Virus record (IMG/VR): IMGVR_UViG_3300045988_123906
Length of the DNA stretch: 64,000 bases
DNA from: a virus
Reading direction: 5' to 3' (one strand)
A program made the position numbers and the translations under genes. Positions 10,691 to 46,311 of the stretch are shown in pieces (positions within the stretch are counted from its first letter, which is position 1; the number at the start of each line of letters is the position of its first letter). The notes under the pieces are model-generated. The model worked only from the letters and a program-made list of their open reading frames with translations, was not told where the DNA came from and made no database searches.

Positions 10691-10730
10691 CCTGCGCAAG
10701 CAGTGGCGGCTCGGAAAGACGAGCGTATAT

Positions 10731-18585: not shown

Positions 18586-18617
18586 AAAATGGAGACATAC
18601 ACAAGGAGTGATGATCT

Positions 18618-18965: not shown

Positions 18966-19006
18966 TCAGTAAACAAAAAATCACTTTGCATATCGTTCCA
19001 AAAGAG

Positions 19007-19217: not shown

Positions 19218-19250
19218 GTGATTTTGATAAAAAGAAAATGAGGTAGAAAT

Positions 19251-19517: not shown

Positions 19518-19525
19518 GGTGAACT

Positions 19526-19801: not shown

Positions 19802-19817
19802 TTGGAATGATTTGAAA

Positions 19818-20021
19818 ATGCAGAATCCCTGCCATTATTGTGTGGCTCCCAAGCGTTATCCCGGGTGTCACGATCACTGTCAGGAGCGCCAGCAGTACGT
19901 CGAAACTGAGCTGACACAGCAGCACCAATACAAAGAAAAGTGCCGCATGATCAACGATTTTGATAATGAGCTATACACTCATAACCTGCGTTACAGAGAA
20001 AAATATCAACACAGATATTGA
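19818..20021 (+). CDS. small Cys/His-rich protein (67 aa)
   Basis: MQNPCHYCVAPKRYPGCHDHCQERQ, a possible metal-binding cluster. RBS is weak. Confidence 0.4.
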   Translation: MQNPCHYCVAPKRYPGCHDHCQERQQYVETELTQQHQYKEKCRMINDFDNELYTHNLRYREKYQHRY

Positions 20022-20045
20022 TTTACATAGAAAGGATGAAGATCA

Positions 20046-20867
20046 ATGGCAGAACCGGCACGTAAGCGCAAGGATCGCGTAGTTCAGTTCCCGCAACAGC
20101 CTGGTTCCGAAGCTCACATCACCATGAGCGAAGCCGAGCTGAAGGAAATGATTTGGGACATCGTGGCTGCCGCTCGCAAGAAAAAGCGCAAGACAAAGCC
20201 AACCAACAGCCTTTATACAAAGGATGGCCGCATCAAACCTTCGCCTGCTGATCCGATTCGTTCCAAAGAGGATTTCCAGAAACTGGCGAATTATCTCGCT
20301 TCCAACGGCGACCCCAAGTTTCGTCTACGCAACAAGGCGATTTTCGTGTTCGGGTGCAGTCTGGGTATTCGTTGTGGCGATCTTCTCAGTCTGAAAACGG
20401 CCGATGTTTACGAACAGGATGGCAGTGTGAAAGAGCATGTCGAACTGATCGAAGAAAAGACCCGTAAGCGCAATGTGTGCAAGATCCCTAAGATGGCAGC
20501 TGACATTCTTGAGGATTATTTCGATGAACAGAATTTCGAGATTAGTCAATCTGATTATCTGTTTCGCAGTCGCAAGGGTGGTCCTCTGACAGTGCGCGGA
20601 TTTTATCGGATCTTGAAAGAAGCAGGGAAAGCGTGTGAGCTAGATATCGATCTGTCCACTCATACCATGCGCAAAACCTATGCAATGGCTGCACTTCAGA
20701 CAGCGAAAAAAGCTGGTACATCTGGGCAAACGATCGAGATGCTTCAAGAAAAGTTTAAGCATAGCAGCCAGCGTGTCACGATGCATTATGTCAAGGCAGA
20801 CCAGGATAAGATGGACGAAATGTCTGATCGTGTGTCGGACTGGTTCGATGATGGAGGAACGGAATGA
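20046..20867 (+). CDS. tyrosine recombinase (phage integrase family)
   Basis: Catalytic signature present: R in LGIRCGDL, HxxR in HTMRKT, and H..Y in HSSQRVTMHY. 273 aa. Confidence 0.8.
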   Translation: MAEPARKRKDRVVQFPQQPGSEAHITMSEAELKEMIWDIVAAARKKKRKTKPTNSLYTKDGRIKPSPADPIRSKEDFQKLANYLASNGDPKFRLRNKAIFVFGCSLGIRCGDLLSLKTADVYEQDGSVKEHVELIEEKTRKRNVCKIPKMAADILEDYFDEQNFEISQSDYLFRSRKGGPLTVRGFYRILKEAGKACELDIDLSTHTMRKTYAMAALQTAKKAGTSGQTIEMLQEKFKHSSQRVTMHYVKADQDKMDEMSDRVSDWFDDGGTE

Positions 20868-21139
20868 CTGATTACATGTATCACCCAGGCGACAGAGTCC
20901 GCGTTCGACTTGATCTTTCGGAACATGAAGAATATAAAATGTTGTCTGGCGAAAATAAAGGTCAACGCTGGGTGATTTTTGACTGGATGAAAAAATACGC
21001 AGGACAAGAGATCGTCATTCAAAAGATCGCACAAACTAGTGGTGTTTACAGAGCACAAGGAATCGATGGCTGCATCTGGGCTGATGAGATGTTTGAGCCG
21101 CTTGTCGTGGACGAGTGCGTTTGTGATTCATTGCTGTAA
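20864..21139 (+). CDS. CxC[DE]S[LI]L-tail family protein, copy 3 (91 aa)
   Basis: YHPGDRVRVRLDL..WADEMF..DECVCDSLL-COOH. ATGA overlap with the recombinase stop. Confidence 0.65.
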   Translation: MTDYMYHPGDRVRVRLDLSEHEEYKMLSGENKGQRWVIFDWMKKYAGQEIVIQKIAQTSGVYRAQGIDGCIWADEMFEPLVVDECVCDSLL

Positions 21140-21160
21140 TGGAATGGAGGAAGTAGAGCA

Positions 21161-21433
21161 ATGTCAAGATATTATCAGTATAAAAACGGAGAGGAAGTGT
21201 TTGTTCGACCTGATCTGGAGCGCGGTGTTCAGTATTATATGCGTTCCGGTTACCGAGCAAATGATGTCAGTGTCACCCTTACTTATTCTCAGGCGCAGCG
21301 GCTTGGCACTGTGGTTCATATTGCCGGCAAGCGCAATGGCCGCTATTACATCGATGAAGATTATGGGTGCGATCGGTGGACGGACGAGATGTTCGCAGCA
21401 CCCAACGAATGTATCTGTACGCCGCTGCTGTGA
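21161..21433 (+). CDS. CxC[DE]S[LI]L-tail family protein, copy 4 (90 aa)
   Basis: YKNGEEVFVRPDL..YYMRSG..WTDEMF..NECICTPLL-COOH. Confidence 0.65.
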   Translation: MSRYYQYKNGEEVFVRPDLERGVQYYMRSGYRANDVSVTLTYSQAQRLGTVVHIAGKRNGRYYIDEDYGCDRWTDEMFAAPNECICTPLL

Positions 21434-21441
21434 GGTGAATT

Positions 21442-21705
21442 ATGGAAGGGAAATACCTGTACGAAATTGGCGACCTCGTAAAAGTTCGCGACGATATTGA
21501 TCGAAACATGTAGTATCGTATGCGTTCCGGTCCCAAAGCTGGACGCGAACCCGGGACTGTATATAATATCGGAAAATATAAGGGGTCAGTCCACAAAATC
21601 ATTTCTTATGAGCAGGGTTATTACAAAATCGATAATGACCCTGATCATCTGTACTGGTCTGATGAAATGTTTGAGCCGATGTCGGTAAACGAAAGCCAAC
21701 AGTAA
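21442..21705 (+). CDS. family copy 5 with in-frame TAG (21511-21513) and no CxC tail
   Basis: gaggtg RBS as for copy 2. MEGKYLYEIGDLVKVRDDIDRNM*YRMRSG..YWSDEMFEPMSVNESQQ. The TAG aligns with the CAG (Gln) codon of copy 4. The tracked ORF 21520-21705 is only the post-TAG part. Confidence 0.5.
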
Positions 21706-21721
21706 CATTGTGACATTGGAT

Positions 21722-21871
21722 ATGTCGGAACTTCATGGGCAGTTGGTTCATATTAAAGATTATTCTTCTCACGGGCACTATATCGTAGAAGAAACATATG
21801 ATTTTAGATGGACTGATGACATGTTTTCTGGTTTGGCAAACAATGAGTGCTGCTGCGAATCTCTGTTATAA
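21722..21871 (+). pseudogene. truncated family copy 6 (C-terminal half only, 49 aa)
   Basis: MSELHGQLVHIKDYSSHGHYIVEETYDFRWTDDMFSGLANNECCCESLL. It lacks the N-terminal GD..V..DL half and has no clear RBS. Confidence 0.45.
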
Positions 21872-21882
21872 GGAGGCACAAG

Positions 21883-22173
21883 TTGCAAGATACAAAATAT
21901 CATGTAGGCGATGTCGTTATTGTCCGCCAGGATTTAGATTTTAGAAAATGTTATTGGATGCGATCAGGTGGAAAAGAAAACGCTCCTTGGAGGAACGTTG
22001 TTTCAGATGTTGTAACTGAAGACATGATAGAGCTTTGTGGACAGACTATCGAAATCGAAGAAATAGTCGATACGGTCGATGGTAAAAAATACAGAGCAAG
22101 AGGTCGCTACTGGACAGACGACATGTTTTCTGACCAAATCGGCAATGAATGTTACTGTGAATCACTTCTGTAA
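21883..22173 (+). CDS. CxC[DE]S[LI]L-tail family protein, copy 7 (TTG start)
   Basis: aaggagg RBS 5 nt before TTG 21883. YHVGDVVIVRQDL..YWMRSG..WTDDMF..NECYCESLL-COOH. Confidence 0.6.
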   Translation: MQDTKYHVGDVVIVRQDLDFRKCYWMRSGGKENAPWRNVVSDVVTEDMIELCGQTIEIEEIVDTVDGKKYRARGRYWTDDMFSDQIGNECYCESLL

Positions 22174-24538: not shown

Positions 24539-24796
24539 ATGAAGTATGCAAAAGGTGAAATCCTTAGTGCATATCAGCGCTTAACGAAAAGTATCAAATA
24601 TGGAGATGCATACTGGTCTGAAAAAGCAATGATAAGTGATGTTCTGAGTGATTACTTCAATCGGATCGAGAGCAAGAAAGTTGTAATCGATCCAAAATAT
24701 GAAAGCTATAGATGTCCAAAGTGCAATACAACGTTAATTGGTCAATATGATCACTATTGCGGACAATGTGGTCAGAAATTGGACTGGAGGATTTGA
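24539..24796 (+). CDS. small zinc-ribbon protein (85 aa)
   Basis: CPKCNTTL...CGQCGQKL, i.e. CxxC...CxxC. Confidence 0.55.
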   Translation: MKYAKGEILSAYQRLTKSIKYGDAYWSEKAMISDVLSDYFNRIESKKVVIDPKYESYRCPKCNTTLIGQYDHYCGQCGQKLDWRI

Positions 24797-24797
24797 A

Positions 24798-26276
24798 ATG
24801 ATCAATATCAACCCGATGCTGCTGTGCGATTTCTACAAGACGACTCACAGTAAGCAGTTTCCGGCCGGCACTACCAAGCTGGTCAGTTATTTTACTCCAC
24901 GCATGAGCCGACTGGATGGCGTGGATGAAGTCGTTGTGTTCGGCATTCAGGCGTTCTGCAAGGATTATCTGGTACGATATTTCAACGACAATTTCTTCGA
25001 CGAACCAAAGTGTATTGTAGTTCCTCAGTACAAGCGTGTCCTGGATGCGACCATTGGTAAGGATGCTTACGATCTAAGCAAGATTGCAGCGCTACATGAT
25101 CTGGGATATCTTCCTGTTGAAATCAAGGCACTGCCAGAAGGTACTCGTTGCCCAATCCATGTGCCGTTTCTGGAGATGAGCAATACGCATCCTGATTTCG
25201 CATGGGTTCCGCAGTTCCTCGAATCTTTTATGAGTTCTGAGCTGTGGCATCCAATGATTTCTGCAACGGTCGGAACTCTGTATCGCGATATTGTGGACAA
25301 GTATTACGATGAAACCGTTGAGGATGGCGTGCCTCATGCTCGTGCTTTGGGTGATTTCAGTTTCCGTGGTCAGGAGTGTATGCAGTCGGCAGTTAAGTCA
25401 AGCGCCGGTTGGTGTCTGAGTTTTCTGAATACGGCTACTGTCCCTGCGATTCCGTATCTGGAAGAAATGTATCGCTGCAATTGCGAAGAAGAGCCCGTTG
25501 CGTTTGGCGCTGTCAGTACCGAGCATAGTGTGATGTGTTCTAACTTCGCTGTCGATGGCGACGAGATCACTTTCATCCGCCGGGCGCTGACGGAGCTGTA
25601 TCCCAATATGAGCTTCAGTATGGTGTCTGATTCCTACGACTACTGGAATCTGGTCGATAATATCCTGCCGCAGCTCAAGGATGAAATCATGGCTCATAAT
25701 GGTACGCTGCTGATCCGTGGCGACTCTGGCGAACCGGTCGAAATCGTCACGCAGACGGTCTATCATCTGTGGGATATCTTCGGCGGCACAGTCAACAGTA
25801 AGGGCTACAAGGTGCTCGATCCTCATGTGAAGGCTCTGTACGGCGATTCCATCACTGTGCAGCGCTGCGAAAAGATTTATGCCGAACTCAAAGCACACGG
25901 TTTCGCCTGCAACAATGTCAGCCTGGGTGTTGGCTCTTTCTCTATGCAGTGCATCGAGCAGAATGGCCAGTTGAAGCCGTTCACTCGCGATACGTTCGGC
26001 ATGGCAGTCAAGGCAACTTATGGCGTGGTCAACGGCAAAGAGATTCAGATCTTCAAGGACCCCAAGACCGACACCGATCATTTTAAGAAGAGTCTGAAGG
26101 GTATGTGTTATGTCACTAAGGATGATTCTGGAAAGCTGGTTTGTACTGATGGTCTGATGGATCACGCTGCTCATTCGGATGGTAACCTGTTGCAAACCGT
26201 ATTCCGTAATGGCGCGATGGTCAAGGAGTACAGTTTAAAGGAAGTTCGTGAGCGACTGTGGGGAGGGAAGTTCTAA
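24798..26276 (+). CDS. nicotinamide phosphoribosyltransferase-like protein (NAMPT/NadV family)
   Basis: ggagga RBS before ATG 24798. The N-terminus NPMLLCDFYKTTH is typical of NadV/NAMPT. 492 aa. Confidence 0.75.
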   Translation: MININPMLLCDFYKTTHSKQFPAGTTKLVSYFTPRMSRLDGVDEVVVFGIQAFCKDYLVRYFNDNFFDEPKCIVVPQYKRVLDATIGKDAYDLSKIAALHDLGYLPVEIKALPEGTRCPIHVPFLEMSNTHPDFAWVPQFLESFMSSELWHPMISATVGTLYRDIVDKYYDETVEDGVPHARALGDFSFRGQECMQSAVKSSAGWCLSFLNTATVPAIPYLEEMYRCNCEEEPVAFGAVSTEHSVMCSNFAVDGDEITFIRRALTELYPNMSFSMVSDSYDYWNLVDNILPQLKDEIMAHNGTLLIRGDSGEPVEIVTQTVYHLWDIFGGTVNSKGYKVLDPHVKALYGDSITVQRCEKIYAELKAHGFACNNVSLGVGSFSMQCIEQNGQLKPFTRDTFGMAVKATYGVVNGKEIQIFKDPKTDTDHFKKSLKGMCYVTKDDSGKLVCTDGLMDHAAHSDGNLLQTVFRNGAMVKEYSLKEVRERLWGGKF

Positions 26277-26749
26277 TGGCTGTTGTAATCAAAGAAGGTA
26301 ATGTGTTTGATTCTGACGCTAAGATCATCTGTCATCAGGTGAATTGTCAGGGCGTTATGGGGTCTGGTGTTGCCAAAGAAGTTCGTGAGCGGTATCCAAA
26401 GGTGTACGAGAAATATCACACTTACTGCGAAAGCAACAAGGATTGTCCTGAACGAATGCTGGGTGTCGCTCAGATGGTTCCAGTTGATGAAAAAGGTTCT
26501 CGATGGATCGTCAATTGCTTCGGTCAGAACAGTTATGGATATGACGGAAAGCAGTACACGTCTGTTGGCGCACTGTTTGAAGCATTCAAAGAAGTGGCCA
26601 AAATCGCCAAGGCATCAGGAGTTAAAGTAGCTATGCCGTATGGAATCGGCTGTGTTCGTGGCGGCGCAAAATGGCTGCTTGTGAAAGAAATTATCGATTT
26701 TACATTTAAAGACGTTGACGTGGAACTGTGGAAACTGGAGGGTAAATAA
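26276..26749 (+). CDS. macro domain protein (ADP-ribose binding or hydrolysis)
   Basis: IICHQVNCQGVMGSGVAKEV fits the macro-domain N..G.MG.GIA pattern. The start overlaps the upstream stop (taATG). Confidence 0.7.
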   Translation: MAVVIKEGNVFDSDAKIICHQVNCQGVMGSGVAKEVRERYPKVYEKYHTYCESNKDCPERMLGVAQMVPVDEKGSRWIVNCFGQNSYGYDGKQYTSVGALFEAFKEVAKIAKASGVKVAMPYGIGCVRGGAKWLLVKEIIDFTFKDVDVELWKLEGK

Positions 26750-26750
26750 T

Positions 26751-27515
26751 ATGCGCAAGTATGAATTTGACGCAGCAAAAACCAAGGATGAAATCGTCGA
26801 GTGGATTCGGAACTATTTCCGCAAGAATGGCCCCGACTGTAATGCGGTGATCGGTATCTCTGGTGGCAAGGATTCCAGTATCGTGGCTGCTCTGTGCTGT
26901 GAAGCGCTGGGCAATGGCCGTGTAATCGGTGTTTTGATGCCCCAGGGTGCTCAGAGTGATATCGATGTGGCACGGGAACTGGTCGCCCATCTGGGTATCA
27001 AGTCCTTCGAGATCAATATTGCGGAAACTGTGAATGCGCTGCTGGCCAATGGACGGGCAGCTGGTCTGTGCGATTCCAAGCAGGCTCGTGTGAATCTGCC
27101 GGCACGAATTCGTATGGCGACTTTGTTCATGGTGAGTCAGAGTATGAATGGGCGAGTAGCTAACACTTGCAACGCTTCAGAAAATTTCGTCGGATGGCAA
27201 ACTGTGGGAGGGGATGGATTTGGTCAGTTCAGTCCTCTCAGTAAGCTGACTGTCACTGAGGTAAAAGCCGTTGGTCGTGAGTTGGGTCTTCCTGAAAAGT
27301 TCATCGAGAAAGCGCCTGCAGATGGACTGACTGGCAAAACCGACGAGGATAATTTCGGCTTTACCTATGACTTCCTCGACAAGTACATTCGCACTGGTGA
27401 TTTCGGCGGTGACACTGCAACTGCAGCCAAGATCGATCGAATGCACGATGCGAACGCATTCAAACTGTTGCCGATGCCTGTGTATAAATCTAATTTTTAC
27501 AAGGTTGAGTGGTAA
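26751..27515 (+). CDS. nadE: NH3-dependent NAD+ synthetase
   Basis: PP-loop GISGGKDSS and overall NadE-like layout. 254 aa. Confidence 0.75.
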   Translation: MRKYEFDAAKTKDEIVEWIRNYFRKNGPDCNAVIGISGGKDSSIVAALCCEALGNGRVIGVLMPQGAQSDIDVARELVAHLGIKSFEINIAETVNALLANGRAAGLCDSKQARVNLPARIRMATLFMVSQSMNGRVANTCNASENFVGWQTVGGDGFGQFSPLSKLTVTEVKAVGRELGLPEKFIEKAPADGLTGKTDEDNFGFTYDFLDKYIRTGDFGGDTATAAKIDRMHDANAFKLLPMPVYKSNFYKVEW

Positions 27516-27527
27516 GGGAGAGTTTTT

Positions 27528-28094
27528 ATGGGAAAAGAAAAAGTTGATGTTCTGATCGTTGTCGATATGCAGAACGATTTTGTCACCGGTCCGCTGGGTA
27601 CTCCTGAAGCGCAGGCCATTGTGCCGAAGGTTGTGGAGAAGATCAAGAACTGGAAGGGTGAAATTCTGTATACCAGAGATACTCACCATGAAAACTATCT
27701 CGAAACGCAGGAAGGCAAGCATCTTCCAGTGAAGCATTGTTTGTTCGGGACAAGTGGCTGGCAGCTTGTGAATGAAGTTGATGAAACGATTTCTGACGAG
27801 CAATGGTGTGAAGATAACCCGATTTATGATAAACACACTTTTGGATCGGCTGGGCTGGCGGATGATCTTGTATTTTTCAACAACAAAGAAAACTGCGAAA
27901 TCACTTCCATCACGTTGGTCGGCCTCTGCACTGATATCTGCGTTATCTCGAATGCGCTTCTGCTCAAGGCCGCACTTCCCGAAGTCCCTATCATTGTGGA
28001 TGCAAGTTGCTGTGCCGGTGTGACTCCTGAGTCCCACAAGAATGCACTGGCAGCTATGAAGATGTGCCAGATTGAGATCGTGAACGAGGAATAA
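27528..28094 (+). CDS. pncA: nicotinamidase / isochorismatase-family hydrolase
   Basis: VVDMQNDF N-terminal motif and catalytic-Cys context LVGLCTDICV. 188 aa. Confidence 0.7.
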   Translation: MGKEKVDVLIVVDMQNDFVTGPLGTPEAQAIVPKVVEKIKNWKGEILYTRDTHHENYLETQEGKHLPVKHCLFGTSGWQLVNEVDETISDEQWCEDNPIYDKHTFGSAGLADDLVFFNNKENCEITSITLVGLCTDICVISNALLLKAALPEVPIIVDASCCAGVTPESHKNALAAMKMCQIEIVNEE

Positions 28095-28095
28095 A

Positions 28096-28284
28096 ATGCA
28101 CTACGTTAATAGCGATATTATTTTGGACGCAGACGAAGCAAGACGGTTTCAGTATCTTCTAAGGCATCCAAACGTAGAGGAAATACAAAGGAAGTTAAAG
28201 GCTTGTAACGATGCTCTCGCTGAAATGAATTATCGAGAGAACGAAGACGGGACCGCTTCTTTTGATATTGATCTTGAGGTGTAA
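28096..28284 (+). CDS. hypothetical protein (62 aa)
   Basis: Abuts the previous stop. No motif recognised. Confidence 0.45.
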   Translation: MHYVNSDIILDADEARRFQYLLRHPNVEEIQRKLKACNDALAEMNYRENEDGTASFDIDLEV

Positions 28285-37078: not shown

Positions 37079-37103
37079 TTATGATGAATAGGAGGTGATT
37101 GAA

Positions 37104-37634
37104 ATGAGAAAGACGATTGCAGCCATTATTGTAACCGGCGTTTATCTGCTGACAAATCTACTCGGCGTGGAAGCAGCTGGTCCGGTCGAGACATACCAGG
37201 GCTGGAGCGATGAACTAAAGTCGTATACGCAGTCTGTATGTGACGAATACAATGTCGATTATTCGTTGGCGCTCGGTGTGATCTATAACGAAAGCAGGTT
37301 CCAAAGTGGCCTGACTCACGTGAATTCAAACGGCACAGTTGATTACGGTCTGATGCAGGTCAACGAGGTCAACTTCGATTATCTCAACAAGACGCTTGGC
37401 GTTCGATCCATGTCTGAACTGCTGGATGATAAAACGGGCATCAGATGTGGTGTTCAGCTGCTGGCGTATCATAAGCAGTACACTGGCAACGATTCGGCGG
37501 CGCTTCTTCGCTACCAGATCGGGGCAGGGAAGTACAAACAGTACCTGAGGAAAGGTCGGTACACAAACCAGACGCATCAACAGGTGCTTACATATCAGAG
37601 CGAACTCGCTTCTTATATGGATTCCTTACAGTAG
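37104..37634 (+). CDS. lytic transglycosylase (SLT domain) with N-terminal signal/TM segment
   Basis: MRKTIAAIIVTGVYLLTNLLGVEA signal-like segment, catalytic context VIYNESRF, and DYGLMQVN. The only CDS in the window ending in TAG (37632-37634). Confidence 0.8.
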   Translation: MRKTIAAIIVTGVYLLTNLLGVEAAGPVETYQGWSDELKSYTQSVCDEYNVDYSLALGVIYNESRFQSGLTHVNSNGTVDYGLMQVNEVNFDYLNKTLGVRSMSELLDDKTGIRCGVQLLAYHKQYTGNDSAALLRYQIGAGKYKQYLRKGRYTNQTHQQVLTYQSELASYMDSLQ

Positions 37635-37704
37635 GAAAAAGATCAGGCGGCAGAAAAACGTCTGTTTGATCTGATCAATCGGTGGAGTGAATCCACCTTT
37701 ATAT

Positions 37705-37779
37705 GCTGGAGTGGCGCAATGGTAGCGCAGGAAATTTGTAATTTTCAGGTTGCAGGTTCAAGCCCTGTCTCCAGCACCA
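37705..37779 (+). tRNA. tRNA-Thr (anticodon TGT)
   Basis: GCTGGAG/CTCCAGC acceptor, anticodon arm GGAAA-TTTGTAA-TTTTC, T arm GCAGG-TTCAAGC-CCTGT, encoded CCA. Confidence 0.8.
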
Positions 37780-37832
37780 TTAGAACAGCGGGCAACCGCA
37801 TCAAAGATTATGTATTACAAAGGAGAATAATT

Positions 37833-38474
37833 ATGACTACTGAAACTATGACAATTCATCGCGCACTGGCCGAGCTGAAGGTTTTGGACGATCGTATCAT
37901 GAAGCTGCTGAGCGAGGCCAAGTTTTGTGGTGCCGCTAAGAATTGTATGCAGAAGCTGGGCGGTGTAACTATTGAAGAGTACAAGCAGAATGCCCAGTCT
38001 ACTTATGATAAGATCACTGATTTGATGGCTCGTCAGGCAGCGATTAAGCGGGCGGTGTCCGAGTCCAATGCGGTTACTCATGCTGTTGTATGTGGACATG
38101 ATTATACTGTTGCGCAGCTTATTTGGATGAACCAGCACGGCATTGATTTCAAGAGTACTTTGCTCAATGTTCTGGAGCGTCAGTATGCAAGCGCAGTTGC
38201 TGCTACTGAGGCTGCAAACTCCAAGCTGAGTGATAAGGCAGATGATTTTATCAGCAGAAACAACGCTGGCGCAGACAAGAACAGTATGGATGCGGAAGCT
38301 ATTAAGGATATGCGAGAGAGCTACATTGAGCGTGAAACCATGCAGCTGGTCGACGGTATCAACATCAAGAAGGTCAAGGAAGAACTGGCTGATGAGATCA
38401 ATAAGTTCAAGGCTGAGGTTGACGCGGTTCTGTCTACTTCTAACGCCATGACTGAGATCACAATCGAATACTGA
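37833..38474 (+). CDS. hypothetical coiled-coil protein, probably abundant (213 aa)
   Basis: aaaggag RBS before ATG 37833, downstream of the tRNA. AAG-biased codon use. No motif recognised. The tracked ORF 37719-38474 runs through the tRNA. Confidence 0.6.
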   Translation: MTTETMTIHRALAELKVLDDRIMKLLSEAKFCGAAKNCMQKLGGVTIEEYKQNAQSTYDKITDLMARQAAIKRAVSESNAVTHAVVCGHDYTVAQLIWMNQHGIDFKSTLLNVLERQYASAVAATEAANSKLSDKADDFISRNNAGADKNSMDAEAIKDMRESYIERETMQLVDGINIKKVKEELADEINKFKAEVDAVLSTSNAMTEITIEY

Positions 38475-38659
38475 TATTTAATCAGCGAAGCATATTCACT
38501 GTCTATCGAAAACGACAAACTGTAATCGTTCGTTCTTTGCTGATGGTAGCCTGCTTGAACGAAATCAAATAATAAAAAAGCTAATAACCATTCATATAAA
38601 AGCTGGCCTCATAAGCCGACAAGATGAAATCAAGTAAAATATTTGGTAATACTTGAATT

Positions 38660-38730
38660 TTTGGATTTGTCAAGAGGTTAAGACGCAAGCCTATAAGCTT
38701 GAAACGATGGTTCGAATCCATTATCCAAAA
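38660..38730 (+). tRNA. tRNA-like gene with abnormal 6-nt (or 8-nt) anticodon loop; no encoded CCA
   Basis: Acceptor TTTGGAT/ATCCAAA (7 bp), T arm GATGG-TTCGAAT-CCATT, anticodon stem CAAGC/GCTTG enclosing CTATAA (38691-38696). Confidence 0.4.
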
Positions 38731-39005
38731 AAATCGAATCAAGAGAAGGAGTTGTCCCAAGGGCCAACACGTAGTTGATTCAAATGTCTTGGAAAGGTTA
38801 ACGGTTATTGATTTAAAGGTTAAAGGTTGAAAGTTCAAAGCTTAAACTTCTAGCTAAAGATTAAACAGTAATGAATACAGGTCAAAGGTTTATAAAATCC
38901 ATGGGCACAGGTTTGTGGATCGATTACATAAGTCCCGTTGTTTACCACATGGCTGGTAGATGGTGAGCGCCTTGGCAGGGGCGTAACAATACCTGCCGTT
39001 TATAT

Positions 39006-39079
39006 GGTTCGGTAGCTCAGAAGGATAGAGCACTAGCCTGTCACGCTAGGGGTCGTGGGTTCAATCCCCATCCGAATCG
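39006..39079 (+). tRNA. tRNA-Asp (anticodon GTC)
   Basis: Anticodon arm CTAGC-CTGTCAC-GCTAG, T arm GTGGG-TTCAATC-CCCAT, G73. No encoded CCA. Confidence 0.85.
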
Positions 39080-39084
39080 CTTAT

Positions 39085-39158
39085 GGTCCTATAGTTCAGT
39101 TGGTTAGAACGAGAGACTGTTAATCTCTATGTCACCTGTTCGAGTCAGGTTAGGACCT
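39085..39158 (+). tRNA. tRNA-Asn (anticodon GTT)
   Basis: Anticodon arm AGAGA-CTGTTAA-TCTCT, T arm ACCTG-TTCGAGT-CAGGT. No encoded CCA. Confidence 0.85.
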
Positions 39159-39164
39159 CTTCGT

Positions 39165-39240
39165 GGTTCTGTAGCTCAGTCGGTAGAGCAGGGGACTGAA
39201 AATCCCTGTGTCGCTGGTTCGATTCCAGCCGGGACCACCA
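39165..39240 (+). tRNA. tRNA-Phe (anticodon GAA)
   Basis: Anticodon arm GGGGA-CTGAAAA-TCCCT, T arm GCTGG-TTCGATT-CCAGC, A73, encoded CCA. Confidence 0.9.
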
Positions 39241-39701
39241 ATGTGCAAGTTGATTTGATAATTGAGTTTGGTCGAAATCCTCCATAAAAAGGTTGTCCGC
39301 CAAGGTCGAAAAATCAACATGAATTCTCACCAAAATGATGTTATCAATGAAATTTGTAATAGGATTAGCGAGGCAGTCACACTCCTGATCAGGGGCCGAT
39401 GTAGCAAGCTTGGTCAAACTGCGTGCCCTGACGATGATAAGATCCGCATTCCAGGCGCAACTGTGCGTGAGTCTCACCAACCCGAAAACAGTGAGAGGTG
39501 AAGGAATAACACTGAAAAACCTTATGTAGCGCGGCTATAACCCGGAAGAGGCTTGACCCAAAAGGATGATCGAGTTTGAGAACCGCAGTGGATAAGCATA
39601 TCGCCAATAGTGCTCTGAAGAGTAACGGTAAATGCCGGACGCCTGACCCGTTAAAGCCAGGACGAGGATCACAGGTGACATCCCTCTGTGATCTATATTA
39701 T

Positions 39702-39777
39702 GCGATCGTAGCTCAATTGGTAGAGCACTTGACTTTTAATCAAGGGGTAGCGGGATCGTAACCCACCGATCGCACCA
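39702..39777 (+). tRNA. tRNA-Lys (anticodon TTT), T arm atypical
   Basis: Anticodon arm CTTGA-CTTTTAA-TCAAG and canonical D arm. The T loop ATCGTAA and one T-stem mismatch are unusual. Encoded CCA. Confidence 0.7.
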
Positions 39778-39932
39778 CGCGGACCACGCAGTAAGTAGTT
39801 TTCGAGTTACAACTATTGTAGCCAGTGTTCTTTGGATACGATTGTATTGTTAGTAGTTCTGCGGAAGGAACAAAAACATAAACAGATGACTGCTGGAAAT
39901 ACAACATACATTTTGATTTTGAGGGTTCAAAA

Positions 39933-40724
39933 ATGAAAGAAAGAGTCTGTGGTATTTATAAAATCGAAAATAAAATAACGCATCAGGTATATATAGGGCA
40001 ATCAAGATATATAGCACGTAGATAGAGAGACCATCGTGTGAAAAGTCAAAGAAAAGACAATGAGTGGTTTCACAGTAGACTTTATACTGCTATGTATGGC
40101 CACCTTGACGATTTTGATTTTTCGATAATTGAAGAATGCGATCAATCAAAATTAAATGAAAGAGAAATATATTGGATTGACTATTATAAAAGTACAGAGC
40201 CGATATACGGATACAATATTCTAATCGGCGGGGATGTAAGTGAACATAATAGAATATTAGGGCAAAATCAATTAAATGAAATAGCCAATCTTTTAGCGAC
40301 AACAGATCTTACTCAAACAGAGATTGCAAATAGATTTGGAGTAGGGCAGCGAACAGTAAGTAGTGTGAATACGGGATATTACAATCTTGACAAAAAGTAT
40401 ATTTTCCCGATCCGTGATAAAAAACATGTGACTGGGAAAATAAAAGAGCGAGTTGAACAAAAGAAAGCTAGGTTAAATGGACGGGATAAGGGTATGACCG
40501 GAATATGTTGCGATTGCGGCGGTCCATGTTCTGCTAAAGCAAAACTTTGTCGCTCATGCATGGACAAAACCCGTATTTCAAAACGCCCTGATAAAGATAC
40601 TTTATTAGGGCTAACTAAAACAATGACTGTTAGTGAAATAAGTCGCGAATTCAATGTTTCTAGTACTACGGTAAAAAAATGGTGCTCACATTATGGAATT
40701 ATACCAGAAAGAAAATACAAGTGA
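39933..40724 (+). CDS. GIY-YIG homing endonuclease (I-TevI-like) with in-frame TAG at 40023-40025
   Basis: MKERVCGIYKIENKITHQVYIGQSRYIARR*RDH..., then EREIYWIDYY and YGYNILIGG. C-terminal zinc finger (CCDCGGPCS..CRSC) and an HTH-like end. The tracked ORF 40038-40724 is only the post-TAG part. Confidence 0.7.
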
Positions 40725-40752
40725 TATTAACATGATTTAATAAAGAGTTTAT

Positions 40753-40828
40753 GCGCCTGTATCTTAATTGGTAAAGAAATGGGCTCTAAACCCAGGGTAT
40801 CCGTGTTCGAATCATGGCAGGCGTGCCA
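40753..40828 (+). tRNA. suppressor tRNA, anticodon CTA (reads UAG)
   Basis: Acceptor GCGCCTG/CAGGCGT (G1-U72), D arm TCTT-AATTGGTA-AAGA, anticodon arm (A)TGGG-CTCTAAA-CCCA(G) with U33 and A37, T arm CCGTG-TTCGAAT-CATGG, G73, encoded CCA. Anticodon at 40786-40788. Confidence 0.75.
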
Positions 40829-40879
40829 AACAAATTACATAACAGTATCCCTTATTTTATAGAAAGGAGATCGAACATT

Positions 40880-41173
40880 ATGGCAATGATTGATCCGTAT
40901 GATGATGACTTCGGTGCCATTTGTAATTGTGCTGTTCGATACGCAGTTGGGCGCAGAACGTATATGCCTGGTCTTGTGATCGATTTCATTACATCGCATC
41001 TGAGCGAGTTGACAGATAAAACGCTATGGTGCTTTCAGCAGGATCTATATCAACGTCTGGATGAAGGGTTTAATTTTGGTGATGAATTTGATTTTCAAAA
41101 CTGGATGAGCTTTCTGGAAGATGTTGATAAAGAAATCAAGAAAAGAAAACAGCCCAGCGGCCATAACCACTGA
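40880..41173 (+). CDS. hypothetical protein (97 aa)
   Basis: aaaggag RBS before ATG 40880, in frame with tracked ORF 40814-41173, whose 5' part overlaps the tRNA. Confidence 0.55.
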   Translation: MAMIDPYDDDFGAICNCAVRYAVGRRTYMPGLVIDFITSHLSELTDKTLWCFQQDLYQRLDEGFNFGDEFDFQNWMSFLEDVDKEIKKRKQPSGHNH

Positions 41174-41437
41174 GCTGTCAGGATTACCCGATGACGTGAT
41201 TCATCTGCAGAACCATCAGTATGAGCCCGACGATACTGCAAATGTCACCAGCGACATCAAGAAAATCTTTCGCCTAACGCTTCATCTAAGCACCTCCAAT
41301 CCGCTCGAGACGCGAGAACAATGTCCGTCATTGAGTAACTGGTGTGTCTAGTGAGAGTTAAGTTGGCAAAAGTGTATCACGTTGTTACGCGATTGTCAAG
41401 AATCATCCCGAGCATGATGTGAAAAGGCTTGTTATAT

Positions 41438-41522
41438 GCGGCAATGGCTGAGTGGTTTAAAGCGGTGGACTTGAAATCCATTGATGGTAATACATCCGCG
41501 AGTTCGAATCTTGCTTGCCGCG
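41438..41522 (+). tRNA. tRNA-Ser (anticodon TGA)
   Basis: Class II: anticodon arm GTGGA-CTTGAAA-TCCAT, variable arm with GATG/CATC stem, T arm GCGAG-TTCGAAT-CTTGC, G73. No encoded CCA. Confidence 0.85.
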
Positions 41523-41528
41523 TGATGT

Positions 41529-41600
41529 GGCCTGTTAGTCAAGAGGTGAAGATGCTGCCCTTTCACGGCGGAGACATCGGTTCAATTCCGGTACAGGCCA
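41529..41600 (+). tRNA. tRNA-Glu (anticodon TTC)
   Basis: Anticodon arm CTGCC-CTTTCAC-GGCGG, T arm ATCGG-TTCAATT-CCGGT, acceptor GGCCTGT/ACAGGCC. Confidence 0.85.
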
Positions 41601-41633
41601 TTTTTTGAAAATTAAATATTGTGAGGTATCAAA

Positions 41634-41861
41634 ATGAAAACAGAAGATTGGATCTCCGTAAAAACTGATTTGCCGAAAATTCCAGACGGCGAGATTTGGA
41701 GCAAAAATGTTTGGATTTATGATGAGAAATACGGACAGCAACAAGGGTATTTTACAACTGATGGGGTATGGTATGAGTTGAACGAGTGTCTTTGGCTAAA
41801 AAATGTTACACATTGGATGCCTCTGCCAGAAGACCCGCCAAAGGAGAAAAATGAATCATGA
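41634..41861 (+). CDS. hypothetical protein (75 aa)
   Basis: gtgaggt RBS tract upstream. Trp-rich. No motif recognised. Confidence 0.5.
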   Translation: MKTEDWISVKTDLPKIPDGEIWSKNVWIYDEKYGQQQGYFTTDGVWYELNECLWLKNVTHWMPLPEDPPKEKNES

Positions 41862-42610
41862 AAACGACGAAGAAAGATTGGATCTATCGTGTGATTCTTC
41901 TGATTCTGTTGGCGATTATCTGGGACATTGGCGCGGCTTTGACTTCGCCAATTTTTGTTCCCCAGAAAGGCGCTGTGTTTCGGGAATTCTTCCTGTTGAT
42001 CCAAAATGGAACAATGTTGAAAGCATTCCGATATTCGCTGGTTCGCATTACGGTGGCAGCCGCTTTGAGTGCCGGCATCTCCATTCCTCTTGGCTGTCTG
42101 ATGAAAATCTGTCATCCGCTTCAAAAGCTGCTCTATCCAGCAATTCGAGCAATGCGATTTTTGCCAGTCACTGCATTCTATCCACTGTTGACTATGTGGT
42201 TTGGAATCGGAGAGAAAATGAAGATTGCTTTCTTATTTGTAGCCAGCTTTGTGTTTATGCTTCCAAGCGTTCTGATTGCCATGGATGATGTCAGTGATGA
42301 TGTGATCGAGGCGGCCAGCATTGATGGAGCAGGGAAGTTCAGCACAGTAACACGAATCGTCTTCCCAATCGCAGCGCCTTCCATCTGTCAGTCATTCGCC
42401 ACAATGTATGCCATCGGTTGGACCTATATCGCAGTGGCCGAGACAGTGAATGCGAAGTACGGTATTGGCTATCTGATCTATACTTCGTCCGCTCGTGGCC
42501 GTACATCTCTGGTGTTTGTTGGAATATTGGCGATTGTGATTTTCAGTATTCTGTTTGACTGGATCACAAATATCTGTATCAAGAAGATTTTTAAGTGGAA
42601 ATTTTCATAA
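41858..42610 (+). CDS. ABC transporter permease (NitT/TauT-type, BPD_transp_1)
   Basis: Multiple TM segments and the EAA loop EAASIDGAGKFSTVTRIVFPIAAP. ATGA overlap with the previous gene. Confidence 0.75.
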   Translation: MKTTKKDWIYRVILLILLAIIWDIGAALTSPIFVPQKGAVFREFFLLIQNGTMLKAFRYSLVRITVAAALSAGISIPLGCLMKICHPLQKLLYPAIRAMRFLPVTAFYPLLTMWFGIGEKMKIAFLFVASFVFMLPSVLIAMDDVSDDVIEAASIDGAGKFSTVTRIVFPIAAPSICQSFATMYAIGWTYIAVAETVNAKYGIGYLIYTSSARGRTSLVFVGILAIVIFSILFDWITNICIKKIFKWKFS

Positions 42611-42620
42611 GGAGGACAAC

Positions 42621-42836
42621 ATGTCGCATGAAATTGAGTTGTGTGGTTGTTTGACCATCCCAGATAACGCGAATTTTGATGAAATCACAGACGTGTTCTT
42701 GGGTTTTGTTGAGTCGCATGGTTGGTACTATGGTGGTGGGTTCTCTGAGATTCGAGACGGCTGTTATGTGAAGCCGGACGTAACTAGTGGTGATCCAATT
42801 TATAAATCAAATAAGGAGAAAGATTATGGCACATGA
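42621..42836 (+). CDS. hypothetical small protein, tandem paralog a (71 aa)
   Basis: aaggagg RBS. MSHEIELCGCLTIPDN..FVESHGWYYGGGFSEIRDG aligns with the next gene. Confidence 0.55.
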   Translation: MSHEIELCGCLTIPDNANFDEITDVFLGFVESHGWYYGGGFSEIRDGCYVKPDVTSGDPIYKSNKEKDYGT

Positions 42837-43038
42837 AATTAAAATTATGGGATGTCTGAGTATTCCAGATAATACAAGCTGGGAGGAGTCAATAAGTTTA
42901 TTTGTTGAATTTATCGAGTCACATAATTGGTGCTATTATGGGGATTTTGCTGAGATTCGTGATGGAAAGCAAGTAGGTTATGGCGTAATAAAAAAAGAAA
43001 ACGAGGAGAAAAATTATGGCGAAGAAAAGTCTATTTGA
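42826..43038 (+). CDS. hypothetical small protein, tandem paralog b (70 aa)
   Basis: aaggag RBS. MAHEIKIMGCLSIPDN..FIESHNWCYYGDFAEIRDG. Confidence 0.55.
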   Translation: MAHEIKIMGCLSIPDNTSWEESISLFVEFIESHNWCYYGDFAEIRDGKQVGYGVIKKENEEKNYGEEKSI

Positions 43039-43636
43039 AAAACTCGGTCTTGTTGAGGGTGTAGCTGCTTCTGAATATGATATGCCGGATACCACGAATG
43101 AGCTTCGCGTTTGTAGTGGCGTCGGAGATCATTACATCAATGGAGATTTCCCAGAGGACGAACCGGTTCAGGTCGAGGTTCCTGAGGGCGATACCATCGA
43201 TGTCCGGGCGGTTTACGAGACCAATGGTATGAACCCTGCCGACGCTGTTACTGTCTACAAGATCAAAGATGTGATCGATACATTCCCGTCTGAGATGCCC
43301 ACCAAAACAAAACGAGCAACGGTCAAAAACCTGATGACGACGCTTGGTTATGATGCGGCCGCGATTATCTCTGATGCGAAGCAGCGCAAGGAGCTTCTGC
43401 GGGCTGTTGGTAACGATAAGATGAATGCACTGTTTGACGAGATGAAGAGCAACGACCAGCAGATTGAATCTATGAAGGAACAGATCGAAGCTTTGACGAA
43501 TCGCAACGTTGAAGCTGGTGCGGCCATCGAAAAGATCACCAATACAGTTCAGGATGAACTCAAGATGATTTCTTCTATCGAGGAATTTATCGAAGAGGAT
43601 AAGACGGAGCCTGCCGGGAAGGAGGTCGCCCAGTAA
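43016..43636 (+). CDS. hypothetical protein (206 aa)
   Basis: gaggag RBS upstream. C-terminal coiled-coil. No motif recognised. Confidence 0.55.
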   Translation: MAKKSLFEKLGLVEGVAASEYDMPDTTNELRVCSGVGDHYINGDFPEDEPVQVEVPEGDTIDVRAVYETNGMNPADAVTVYKIKDVIDTFPSEMPTKTKRATVKNLMTTLGYDAAAIISDAKQRKELLRAVGNDKMNALFDEMKSNDQQIESMKEQIEALTNRNVEAGAAIEKITNTVQDELKMISSIEEFIEEDKTEPAGKEVAQ

Positions 43637-44466
43637 TGTTTTCTTTCACGATTGCTGAGTTTACTTTTCTCTGTGTTGGTTTCGCCTTTGTTGGCAGTTT
43701 AATTCTGTTTCCGTCATTCCGTCAGCAGCTCAAAGCTCTTGCCGGTGGTTTCTTGCAGGTCTTTGTGCAGGATACAGCCAAGACACCAGATGGTGCACGC
43801 GCTATCTATGCTCAGAAGATCGATGAGATGACTGAGAAATACACAGATGCCTGCAATACTCTGCGAGACCTGACTGGTAAGCTCAAGACGATTCAGGATA
43901 ACTACGCTGTCTGTCAGAAGCAGGCGAAAGGTTACGATGAACGTGCAAAGGCTGCTATGAGTCGCGGTGATGAAGAGTCCGCAACCACTTACGCTCGTCT
44001 TTTACAGGAAGAGCTCGATAAAGCCGAGAACCTATCTGCTCAGTTCCAAAAAATGAAACCAGCGGCGGAAGAGGTCAAGGCAATCAAGGAAAAGCTTGAA
44101 AATCAGTTGGCTGCTCTGAAGCGCGAAAGCAAGGATGTGGTGGCCGAATTGAAGGCGAACGAACAGGTTGCAGATGTGTATTCCAATCTGGATCGTCTGC
44201 GTGCATCTACCGGAACCGATAAAATGCTCAACGCTACCCGTGATGGCCTTCAGGAAAGTCGCGAAAAAGCAGCGGGTGCAAAGGTTCTGTATCAGACTAG
44301 TCGAGAGGGAAAGCTGGATAAAGCGGACGCAAATACTGCTGATTATAAGGTGAGTTCGTATCTGGATAGTCTCAAAAGGAGCAATCCAAACGTAACAACT
44401 TACAGCATTCCTGATCTGAATACCCTCACAAAGTCTTCTGGATTGAACACTCAGTCCAAGAAATAA
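43636..44466 (+). CDS. PspA/IM30-like protein with N-terminal TM segment
   Basis: FTIAEFTFLCVGFAFVGSLILF TM segment, then a long coiled-coil with ERAKAAMSRGDEESATTYARLL, which fits the PspA pattern (A..AL..G.E.LA). Confidence 0.6.
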   Translation: MFSFTIAEFTFLCVGFAFVGSLILFPSFRQQLKALAGGFLQVFVQDTAKTPDGARAIYAQKIDEMTEKYTDACNTLRDLTGKLKTIQDNYAVCQKQAKGYDERAKAAMSRGDEESATTYARLLQEELDKAENLSAQFQKMKPAAEEVKAIKEKLENQLAALKRESKDVVAELKANEQVADVYSNLDRLRASTGTDKMLNATRDGLQESREKAAGAKVLYQTSREGKLDKADANTADYKVSSYLDSLKRSNPNVTTYSIPDLNTLTKSSGLNTQSKK

Positions 44467-44493
44467 AATCAAAATTAAATAGGAGAGAATAAC

Positions 44494-46074
44494 ATGTCTA
44501 AGTTCAAATTGACTAAGGCTGGCCGTGCTGTTGTTGGCGTGGTTCTTGCGGTAGCTGTTGCTATTGGTGTCGTTGGCGGCATCAAGGGCGGTGTGATTAA
44601 GTTCGACAAGAAAAAGCCAACTGCATCTGATAAGCCTGCCACGAATGTCACCACGAATGCATCAACCGGCGACGACACGATCAATCTGTCTCTGGATGAA
44701 TGGGCGGGATGGTTGAGCTGTATCACAGCAAATGGCGGTCTCACCACTCAGCCCGGTTCTGTGTTTGACCAGCTCGGCATCAAAGTGAATATCAATGTCA
44801 TCAACGACGCTACTGAGTCCAGCAATGCACTGATCTCTGGTGATCTGCAGGCCGCTGGTTATACTACGAACCGTGTCGCGTTCCTGTCTCAGAAGTTTAC
44901 GGATGCCGGTAAGAATATCATCATGCCGGTGTTTACTAACTACAGCTATGGCGGAGACGGTATTATCGCTTCCACTCAGTTTGCAGATGTGAATTCGTGG
45001 GTCAATGCCAAGATCGGCGTTCCTGAATTCTCTGAGGCCGAAACCTTGGTCGCTTGGTTTGTCAATAATTCCAACCTGTCCGATGCGGATAAGGCAACCA
45101 TTATGAACAACCTGATCATGTTCGGTACGGCAGATGATACTGCTAAAGCATACTTTGCTGGTCAGATCGATGTTGCTGCAACATGGGAGCCGTACCTGAC
45201 TCAGGCTAAGACCTATACCAACAGCACCGTTGTTTTTGATACCAAGTCTTCTTCTTCTCTGGTCATGGATGGCATTGTGTTTGATGCCGATTGGGCAGCA
45301 GCTCACGAAGATACTGTCAAGAAGTTCGTCAAGGGTATTCTGATGTCTTATGATCAGCCCATCAATTACGACGCAGCTCGTGAAGTGTTCCCGATGTATT
45401 CTACTTCCAGTGATGCAGATATCGACGCTACTTACGCCAATGCCAAGATGGCCAGCTGGAAGGACAATTACAACATTCTAAACGATACTGCTCCCATGAT
45501 CTATAACCAGATGTGCGATATCTGGGAGGCTCTGGGCGAAACCGTCAATCGCGGCCTTGTGGACACGATTTTTGATACCACTTATATTGACGCTCTGAAA
45601 GGTGATTTTAAGTCTACTTCCGCCGCAAATGCCACCACAAAGGTGACTGTAAGTGACGAAACCCGTGCCAATATCACCCAGCAGGTCACTGGCAATCTGG
45701 ATTATGATTCCATGCTGAGCAAGACCGCCAATGTAACATTTGTCCCGGATTCTTCTGTGTTCACCGATCAGGCCAGCGCAGCCTCTGTTCTGGATGATTT
45801 CGTAAATATCGCCAAGACTCTGGATGGCACAATGATCGTTATCAACGGCAATATCAATGCGGACACTCAGACCGAGTTCGGTGTGCAGCTCTCTGCAAAT
45901 CGTGCTCAGACTGTTGCCAACTATCTGGCTTCTCAGGGTATTGATCAGAATCGACTGATTATTACAGGCTCTGGCAATGCAAAGTATCAGGCCGACAAGG
46001 CTGCTGGTGCTCTGAAGCCGGATGCAAGCGTATACCAGTCTACCGATATCAGCTTTATGCGAATCGAGAACTGA
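44494..46074 (+). CDS. membrane-anchored NitT/TauT-type substrate-binding protein fused to an OmpA-like C-terminal domain
   Basis: N-terminal TM (AVVGVVLAVAVAIGVVGG). SBP-like core with GQIDVAATWEPYL. C-terminal LSANRAQTVANYLASQGIDQNRLIITGSGN is an OmpA_C-type peptidoglycan-binding pattern. Confidence 0.6.
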   Translation: MSKFKLTKAGRAVVGVVLAVAVAIGVVGGIKGGVIKFDKKKPTASDKPATNVTTNASTGDDTINLSLDEWAGWLSCITANGGLTTQPGSVFDQLGIKVNINVINDATESSNALISGDLQAAGYTTNRVAFLSQKFTDAGKNIIMPVFTNYSYGGDGIIASTQFADVNSWVNAKIGVPEFSEAETLVAWFVNNSNLSDADKATIMNNLIMFGTADDTAKAYFAGQIDVAATWEPYLTQAKTYTNSTVVFDTKSSSSLVMDGIVFDADWAAAHEDTVKKFVKGILMSYDQPINYDAAREVFPMYSTSSDADIDATYANAKMASWKDNYNILNDTAPMIYNQMCDIWEALGETVNRGLVDTIFDTTYIDALKGDFKSTSAANATTKVTVSDETRANITQQVTGNLDYDSMLSKTANVTFVPDSSVFTDQASAASVLDDFVNIAKTLDGTMIVINGNINADTQTEFGVQLSANRAQTVANYLASQGIDQNRLIITGSGNAKYQADKAAGALKPDASVYQSTDISFMRIEN

Positions 46075-46235
46075 GGTGATTCAGATTGATCTGGATTGAA
46101 ATCAGTAAAGCAATTTGGATTGTGGGCGGATTGATGCTGGCTTCTTTTGCGGCTGGTTATTTCTTCCATGGCCCAACTTCTAAGATTTAAAACTCACGGC
46201 GGTGCTCAGGTAGCACTGGGTGCCGCCTTATATAA

Positions 46236-46311
46236 TGTGCTATAGCCAAGTCGGTCAAGGCAAGGGACTTTGACTCCCTGATCGTGTGTTCGAGTCACAC
46301 TAGCACAACCA
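46236..46311 (+). tRNA. tRNA-Gln (anticodon TTG)
   Basis: U1-A72 acceptor TGTGCTA/TAGCACA, anticodon arm AGGGA-CTTTGAC-TCCCT, T arm GTGTG-TTCGAGT-CACAC, encoded CCA. Confidence 0.8.

Follow-up and report, generated by a model that had tools for sequence, protein, structure and literature searches.

A 64,000-nucleotide stretch of viral DNA (IMG/VR record IMGVR_UViG_3300045988_123906; hereafter the window) carries, on its plus strand at 40753–40828, a transfer RNA (tRNA) gene whose anticodon, CUA, is complementary to the amber stop codon UAG. Taken as a whole, the evidence is very probably best explained by a working amber suppressor of tRNA-Trp descent, which arose inside the tRNA array of an approximately 140 kb temperate, SPbeta-like prophage of Faecalibacterium through a C35-to-U change in a tRNA-Trp(CCA) gene and which is used for the late genes of that phage. 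In these genes TAG is apparently read as tryptophan, as judged from codon substitutions among related genomes, and not as the glutamine of the known recoded phages.

A first-pass annotation, made from the letters alone, had proposed a CUA tRNA at this position and suggested running ARAGORN on it; ARAGORN and Rfam both agree. The former reports a 76-nt tRNA with CTA at tRNA position 34 (40786–40788), and the latter matches family RF00005 with 57 bits (gathering score 29). The cloverleaf that had been folded by hand is likewise seen in the sequence and in an alignment-based fold, with a G1·U72 wobble, an A27/G43 mismatch, the anticodon loop CTCTAAA, the discriminator base G73 and an encoded CCA end. 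It is an ordinary one, with a 5-bp anticodon stem, the T-loop TTCGAAT and a 5-nt variable loop, so that the phage tRNA combines a stop-complementary anticodon with a canonical fold, as in known cases of suppressor-tRNA recoding. At least five alleles of the CUA tRNA (A–E, the window carrying A) are found among relatives; they differ by about 30%, with G1·U72, G73, CCA and the loop CUCUAAA kept in all of them, and seven compensatory base-pair changes separating alleles A and B support the cloverleaf. When position 35 was left free in a pattern search of IMG/VR, all 46 matches had T there. By these comparisons the CUA tRNA is real and under constraint. A scan for sigma-70 promoters and terminators around the gene returned nothing usable. 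ARAGORN prints 'tRNA-Pyl' for the gene, and that it encodes a pyrrolysine tRNA has next to no probability: the name is simply the default given by the program to any CUA anticodon, and we rejected it. tRNA-Pyl has an atypical fold (6-bp anticodon stem, 3-nt variable loop, small D-loop) and occurs in genomes with pylS/pylBCD. The canonical cloverleaf at 40753–40828 lacks that fold, no Pyl-pathway family appears in any Pfam gene table for the window or its flanks, and TAG interchanges with TGG, as set out below.

The tRNA has the G73, CUCNAAA loop and weak 1–72 pair of a bacterial-type tRNA-Trp, but the anticodon is CUA instead of CCA, both in the window and in all 46 pattern matches. Its descent can be followed in sister genomes. 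Of 62 related tRNA-array loci, 43 carry the CUA tRNA but no tRNA-Trp(CCA), 11 the reverse, one carries both and seven neither. The commonest Trp(CCA) form occupies the same slot as the suppressor, which in the window lies between tRNA-Lys (39702–39777) and tRNA-Ser (41437–41523), and its 5' half, compared by eye, is close to suppressor allele B. The phage's own tRNA-Gln(UUG) is unlike the suppressor, with A73 and a different anticodon loop. Shared position and homology with a genuine tRNA-Trp(CCA) gene, together with the dissimilarity to tRNA-Gln, therefore argue that the suppressor is a tRNA-Trp changed from CCA to CUA within the phage array.

As the first-pass annotation had stated, the window holds early, replication and nucleotide-metabolism genes (DnaB, DnaE, ligase, ThyX, NAMPT and others), and it had looked for any recoding elsewhere in the genome, among late genes. 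The late arm lies to the left of the window and runs the opposite way. We rebuilt 72.6 kb of it from the 139.7 kb IMG/VR contig IMGVR_UViG_3300045988_134837 by a stepwise leftward walk through related loci; the whole arm is transcribed away from the window, up to the lysis genes and integrase. A gene call that accepted only TAA and TGA as stops gave 55 genes, of which 17 contain TAG, and about 14 of the TAGs are clearly internal to well-supported genes. The carriers are a PIN-PhoH protein, a YonO-like RNA polymerase, a 270-aa protein, a metallophosphatase, a putative small terminase, the large terminase (identity confirmed by Pfam Terminase_6N), the portal, both tape-measure pieces, an 826-aa tail protein and further tail-fibre genes. 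The PIN-PhoH TAG sits between the PIN and PhoH domains, and the two halves of the RNA polymerase on either side of its TAG match consecutive parts of the Pfam RdRP family. With tryptophan written at the TAG, the terminase reads ...KVI[W]AIMGSSQFNSDVAIGLR and the portal ...ISS[W]NFEK. Among the lysis genes the holin has no TAG, and the endolysin has one at codon 12, which may precede the true start. Conserved, otherwise intact genes of relatives 95–97% identical to the window thus contain in-frame stops; an absence of such TAGs from conserved genes outside the window was what the first-pass annotation had named as speaking against its proposal. Public gene calls split PIN-PhoH into 176 and 274 aa, and standard gene calls would likewise break up the terminase, portal, RNA polymerase and remaining TAG-bearing genes. 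A separate feature of the late arm is that its tape measure comes in two pieces (1647 and 2491 aa), about 2.8 kb apart with an opposite-strand gene (loci L201/L226, on the same contig as L013; about 30–46 kb left of the window start). At its end the first piece runs into junk-like sequence and a TAA or TAG stop, and an intron or mobile insertion may be responsible.

To which amino acid TAG corresponds was read from homologous codons. We scanned 550 fetched loci (9.2 Mb) for in-frame TAGs and read the homologous codon at each site in every relative. A TAG was kept only if its frame was the best of six and a coding signal was present on both sides; the best-of-six rule is needed because antisense frames show the leucine codons CTA/CTG of the sense strand as false TAG/CAG. 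At the resulting 86 site clusters the main alternative codon is TGG in 51 and CAG in 13, with none in 11 and the rest scattered. At the 29 sites with TAG in at least five loci, the alternative is TGG in 20, GAG in two and TAC in one, CAG in none, and six have no alternative. From codon usage, TGG would be expected at a share of 0.34; the excess has a binomial p of 7e-14 over all sites and of 4e-10 over the multi-locus sites. Neutral nonsense mutation would favour CAG, since CAG is about twice as frequent as TGG in the late arm (417 versus 213 codons) and each is one transition away from TAG. Outside this group of phages, the TAG of the RNA polymerase corresponds to W in a relative of 64% identity and to Y in the cultured Thomasclavelia phage TR-TP1. 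The Trp-type anticodon loop that the first-pass annotation had noticed proved to be the decisive clue.

The obvious competitor is the standard 'code 15', in which the suppressor inserts glutamine at TAG, as in the crAss-like, Lak, Garnet, Topaz and phAss-1 phages. It has precedent, in that every TAG recoding so far described in phages is TAG to Gln; E. coli tRNA-Gln, too, has G73 and a weak 1–72 pair, glutamine is wrongly attached to tRNA-Trp(CUA) in E. coli, and CAG is the alternative at those 13 of 86 sites. We nevertheless consider a glutamine reading improbable. TGG predominates at 51 sites to 13 and, where TAG occurs in at least five loci, at 20 to none, in spite of the twofold higher frequency of CAG codons; some members of the CAG class belong to unrelated phages or to sites in one or two loci only; the CUA tRNA shares homology with tRNA-Trp(CCA) of the phage but does not resemble its tRNA-Gln; and outside homologs have W or Y at two TAG positions.

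In-frame TAGs and the CUA tRNA occur together in an all-or-none fashion. All 30 contigs with the CUA tRNA carry between 2 and 16 TAGs at TAG/TGG-polymorphic sites, and none of the 12 contigs without it does (seven with CCA, five with neither; Fisher p = 9e-11). Counting all sites, there are no in-frame TAGs in 684 kb of suppressor-free genomes and 281 in 1.99 Mb of suppressor-bearing ones; the per-contig counts include some double counting from overlapping loci, which leaves the all-or-none pattern unaffected. The distribution along the genome is uneven too: after filtering, early-arm loci have one in-frame TAG in 1.14 Mb, in a host gene, and late-arm loci have 496 in 3.6 Mb. Set against TGG, TAG counts are 2 versus 236 in the window and 14 versus 213 in the late arm (p = 0.0016), about 6% of the late-arm tryptophan codons in the reference relative being TAG. 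The recoded codons are hence enriched in late and structural genes, where the first-pass annotation had suggested that recoding might lie.

These patterns also bear on whether the TAGs might be inactivating mutations in decaying prophages, or assembly errors, with the tRNA irrelevant to them. Public gene calls do split TAG-bearing genes such as PhoH, and one TAG in the window, at 21511, is a nonsense change found in a single genome. The same TAGs recur, however, across dozens of independent assemblies, including IMG/VR viral contigs of 110–150 kb; the frames are open and coding on both sides; and the TAGs are limited to genomes with the CUA tRNA and replace TGG almost exclusively. Decay or misassembly is accordingly very unlikely.

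For a working Trp-derived suppressor, we envisage that the tRNA is made from the early/middle arm and that the host tryptophanyl-tRNA synthetase (TrpRS) would attach tryptophan to it. The charged tRNA would then compete with host release factor 1 (RF1) at UAG, so that UAG at the tryptophan positions of late genes (RNA polymerase, PIN-PhoH, metallophosphatase, terminases, portal, tape measure, tail) could be translated. Since the phage hardly ever ends a gene in TAG, suppression would cost it little. That early genes have almost no TAG implies that suppression is unavailable, or not tolerated, when those genes are read, and the distribution as a whole suggests a timed code switch that gates the late genes: late proteins, among them the late RNA polymerase, would be completed only once the suppressor has accumulated. 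In a lysogen, leaky late transcripts would yield truncated products, which would amount to a translational lock on the lytic programme. We give about even chances to a specific form of this scheme, in which the lineage represents a UAG = Trp code variant near its origin, the C35U change having made the suppressor and a few late-gene TAG-Trp codons now acting as a lytic lock. Sister genomes keep what would be the starting state, with tRNA-Trp(CCA), TGG throughout and no TAG, and it is the restriction of TAG-Trp codons to late genes, the late RNA polymerase included, that points to a lock.

Several observations weigh against this interpretation or parts of it. Bacterial TrpRS relies on C35 as a major identity element, and in E. 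coli the tRNA-Trp(CUA) mutant Su7 receives mostly glutamine. Charging with tryptophan would therefore need a permissive host TrpRS, compensating changes in the tRNA, or the lack of a competing glutaminyl-tRNA synthetase (GlnRS). The support for charging with tryptophan is indirect, through the TAG/TGG interchange, and expression of the CUA tRNA is presumed. At a minority of the in-frame TAG sites relatives have CAG, GAG or TAT, most of these TAGs being found in one or two genomes, and the window's own TAG at 21511 alternates with CAG and not TGG. The late arm that we studied belongs to close relatives and not to the window's own genome. No preferred nucleotide was found 3' of TAG: the following base is a purine in 72% of cases compared with 64% after TGG, a comparison of raw proportions. 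With no clear context bias and a low TAG density, neutral TGG-to-TAG drift fits as well as selected gating, and the scarcity of TAG in early genes is no proof of an adaptive gating.

A suppressor that inserts tryptophan might thus be accompanied by sense TAGs that are no more than neutral drift, the tRNA being retained for some other reason or by the TAGs already fixed. We regard this version as a serious alternative, though less likely than not. It accords with the small fraction of late-arm tryptophan codons affected, with the polymorphism of most sites among close relatives and with a 3' context that shows no clear bias, and TAG terminators were scarce before the suppressor arose, so that the tRNA would have cost little. 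Drift accords less well with a more than 100-fold difference in TAG density between the late and early arms, which indicates at least that TAG is not tolerated in early genes, with sites that are TAG in every aligned locus (122 of 122 and 65 of 65), and with the presence of the late RNA polymerase and both terminase subunits among the carriers.

Within the window, TAG is rare in every role. A crude gene call based on codon usage gave 81 genes, which end in TAA (45), TGA (35) and TAG (1); composition predicts equal use of TAG and TGA (binomial p = 5e-10 for 1 versus 35). The first-pass annotation had noticed this scarcity and its sole exception, a lytic transglycosylase gene, and both hold in the gene call. 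Over the whole window, every frame of the coding (plus) strand has fewer TAG trinucleotides than expected (observed/expected 0.34), and the avoidance is strand-specific and wider than terminator use. In the +1 and +2 frames of that strand TAG occurs 52 and 47 times versus 505 and 814 for TGA; CTA, its reverse complement, is barely depleted (0.86). TAG terminators are also scarce in the suppressor-free sister genomes (18 of 532 gene calls, from a handful of distinct genes). The scarcity is therefore a trait of the lineage that was not caused by the tRNA, and since the suppressor-free clade is already depleted, the depletion preceded the suppressor. Borges et al. (bioRxiv 10.1101/2021.08.26.457843) proposed the same path for other phages, from TAG depletion through gain of a suppressor to in-frame TAGs.

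The one window gene that ends in TAG (37632–37634) encodes the SLT-domain lytic transglycosylase (37095–37634, plus strand; Pfam SLT in relatives). Its TAG is unchanged in 68 of 68 loci, suppressor-free genomes included, and by this conservation is an ordinary stop codon. Programmed readthrough into a fusion with the next gene was considered and rejected, as the extension is not conserved: it measures 279 codons in 28 loci, 59 in 37 and other lengths in three (range 35–279). In the window, readthrough of this TAG (37632–38474) would follow an open frame of 279 codons through the tRNA-Thr gene into the next gene, probably by chance.

The two in-frame TAGs that the first-pass annotation had listed are both present, but only one of them fits the tryptophan pattern. 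This is the TAG at 40023–40025 in a GIY-YIG homing endonuclease gene (39933–40724, plus strand), directly upstream of the suppressor tRNA and the only conserved, intact gene of the window to contain an in-frame stop. The N-terminal fragment gives a weak Pfam match to GIY-YIG (17.1 bits, below the cut-off of 22.6); stronger support comes from the match of the 39933–40724 product to I-TevI (E = 3e-5), in which the TAG aligns with the tryptophan of 'EKRWKRH' (PDB 1MK0, 1LN0). All six copies of the gene that were found keep the TAG, each of them beside tRNA allele A. The second TAG, at 21511–21513, lies in a small gene (21442–21705, plus strand) of a '...CESLL' paralog family of about 90 aa. It is seen in this genome only, the closest relatives having CAG and more distant ones AAA, and is a plain nonsense change in a dispensable paralog, perhaps tolerated given the suppressor. 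Other members of this family form an array, with C-termini ...C.CESLL, that adjoins an RVT_1 reverse transcriptase (17353–18585) and a tyrosine recombinase (20046–20867); the whole spans 17353–22100, with 12401–12649 in addition.

Stop recoding by suppressor tRNAs is already established in gut phages and prophages (TAG to Gln, TGA to Trp or Gly). The present phage resembles the crAss-like, Lak, Garnet, Topaz and phAss-1 phages in having a phage CUA tRNA, a host that presumably uses the standard code and TAG as a rare terminator, and in concentrating recoding in structural and late genes while replication genes stay in the standard code; prophage examples exist among them as well. It differs from those densely recoded TAG-to-Gln phages in the amino acid, in the number of codons (about 2–16 per genome), in having a single such tRNA, and in that the origin of the suppressor from a phage tRNA-Trp is visible in sister genomes. 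The laboratory mutant Su7 (supU) of E. coli carries the same single change from CCA to CUA in a bacterial-type tRNA-Trp with G73; it is charged mainly with glutamine by GlnRS, whereas here natural codon substitutions point to tryptophan. In phAss-1, where TAG is read as glutamine, it occurs in 41 of 147 open reading frames and there are three suppressor genes (PMC10607447). Borges et al. observed only TAG to Gln and TGA to Trp in phages whose code is unlike that of the host. Their Jade phages (TGA to Trp, code 4, Sup-TCA) come close to the present case, with a stop codon reassigned to tryptophan through a tRNA-Trp derivative in lysis and late genes; there, however, the codon is TGA and some members carry a phage TrpRS and RF1, whereas here it is TAG and neither is seen where Pfam tables exist. 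A full-text literature search, with most subscription journals outside its reach, found no TAG-to-Trp phage and no description of this prophage. What appears to be new is therefore a sparse UAG = Trp recoding, confined to the late arm, recently arisen and with the origin of its suppressor visible in sister genomes, although it may have been described before.

The phage recodings described so far (TAG to Gln, TGA to Trp/Gly) have been read as a sign that GlnRS alone tolerates CUA anticodons, and a TAG-to-Trp recoding would widen the range of possible code changes; if true, it points to a TrpRS that accepts a CUA anticodon, which would be useful for genetic-code expansion. With relatives that have and lack the suppressor, the ancestral tRNA retained in some and few codons reassigned, the lineage offers an unusually clean natural experiment on the onset of a code change. 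Recoding as sparse as this probably escapes detection pipelines, one published example of which demands a 10% gain in coding potential, and as a consequence public gene calls of a widespread prophage split PIN-PhoH and would split its other recoded genes. The host is a health-associated keystone species of the gut, and a translational lock on lytic genes would bear on the stability of lysogeny there.

The host is Faecalibacterium, as named by the genes that flank the prophage. Genes for a tyrosine integrase and an excisionase-like HTH protein lie some 10 kb beyond the right end of the window, followed by host genes (flavodoxin and an HGSNAT-domain protein) that NCBI and UniRef name as Faecalibacterium prausnitzii or F. 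duncaniae. We take this host to use the standard code. A scan of genome contigs for the host yielded two contigs of metagenome-assembled genomes that are probably mis-binned, and the flanking genes were used in their place. In the flank of a prophage 99.98% identical to the window (L002:19341), the host HGSNAT-domain gene itself has a TGG-to-TAG change and is called as two genes; another locus (L001) has TGG there. The window is 99.98% identical to the compared part of a 663 kb scaffold (OLIV22-1_SAMN24806854_METAG-scaffold_2). The element often lies inside contigs of 200–800 kb, related IMG/VR contigs of 110–150 kb number more than 100, and it is very widespread in the human gut: an exact-protein look-up lists one window protein in about 2,000 assembly-collection blocks.

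SPbeta-like content includes a DnaE-type polymerase (closest cultured relatives C. difficile phages, 39% identity), YorH and the YonO-type RNA polymerase. SPbeta, phiCD211, the LIBA C. difficile phages and Thomasclavelia TR-TP1/2 are likewise temperate phages of about 130–140 kb with these three proteins; protein identity to them is only 22–39%, and the host here is Faecalibacterium. No recoding turned up in these phages, and no check was aimed at it. Among GenBank phages, only three unannotated fragments matched the window DNA and late-arm DNA, and no complete annotated relative was found. The Pfam tables, which cover the window and flanks, with the late arm scanned in part, contain no phage aminoacyl-tRNA synthetase or release-factor family. 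At about 24700–28100 the window holds a NAD-salvage block (NAMPT, NAD synthase, a Macro domain protein and an isochorismatase/nicotinamidase), similar to the NAD+ reconstitution pathways with which phages counter NAD-depleting defences.

The suppressor belongs to an array at 37705–41601 (plus strand; ARAGORN, Rfam) made up of tRNA-Thr, one odd tRNA, Asp, Asn, Phe, Lys, the suppressor, Ser and Glu, with interspersed homing endonucleases. ARAGORN finds 16 tRNA genes in the window and Rfam a 17th at 11075–11143. These 17 tRNAs (8688–11624 and 37705–46311) read mostly A/U-ending codons (Leu-UAA, Ile-UAU, Lys-UUU, Glu-UUC, Gln-UUG, Gly-UCC, Pro-UGG, Thr-UGU, Ser-UGA), a set that fits a phage of 46% GC in a host of higher GC (about 56% for Faecalibacterium). 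The odd tRNA-like gene (38659–38731; Rfam 52.5 bits) has a 6-nt anticodon loop (CUAUAA), for which ARAGORN gives a 2-base 'anticodon'; its counterpart in two relatives (L141, L142) has a 7-nt loop and is called tRNA-Tyr(AUA). It may be functional, a decoy or decaying. The suppressor alleles differ to the extent given above even though the flanking proteins are 93–100% identical (window 40753–40828 and arrays L319–L380), and the homing endonucleases of the array (GIY-YIG, HNH_3, PDDEXK_5) vary from genome to genome. This variation suggests cassette exchange, or a diversifying pressure on the body of the tRNA.

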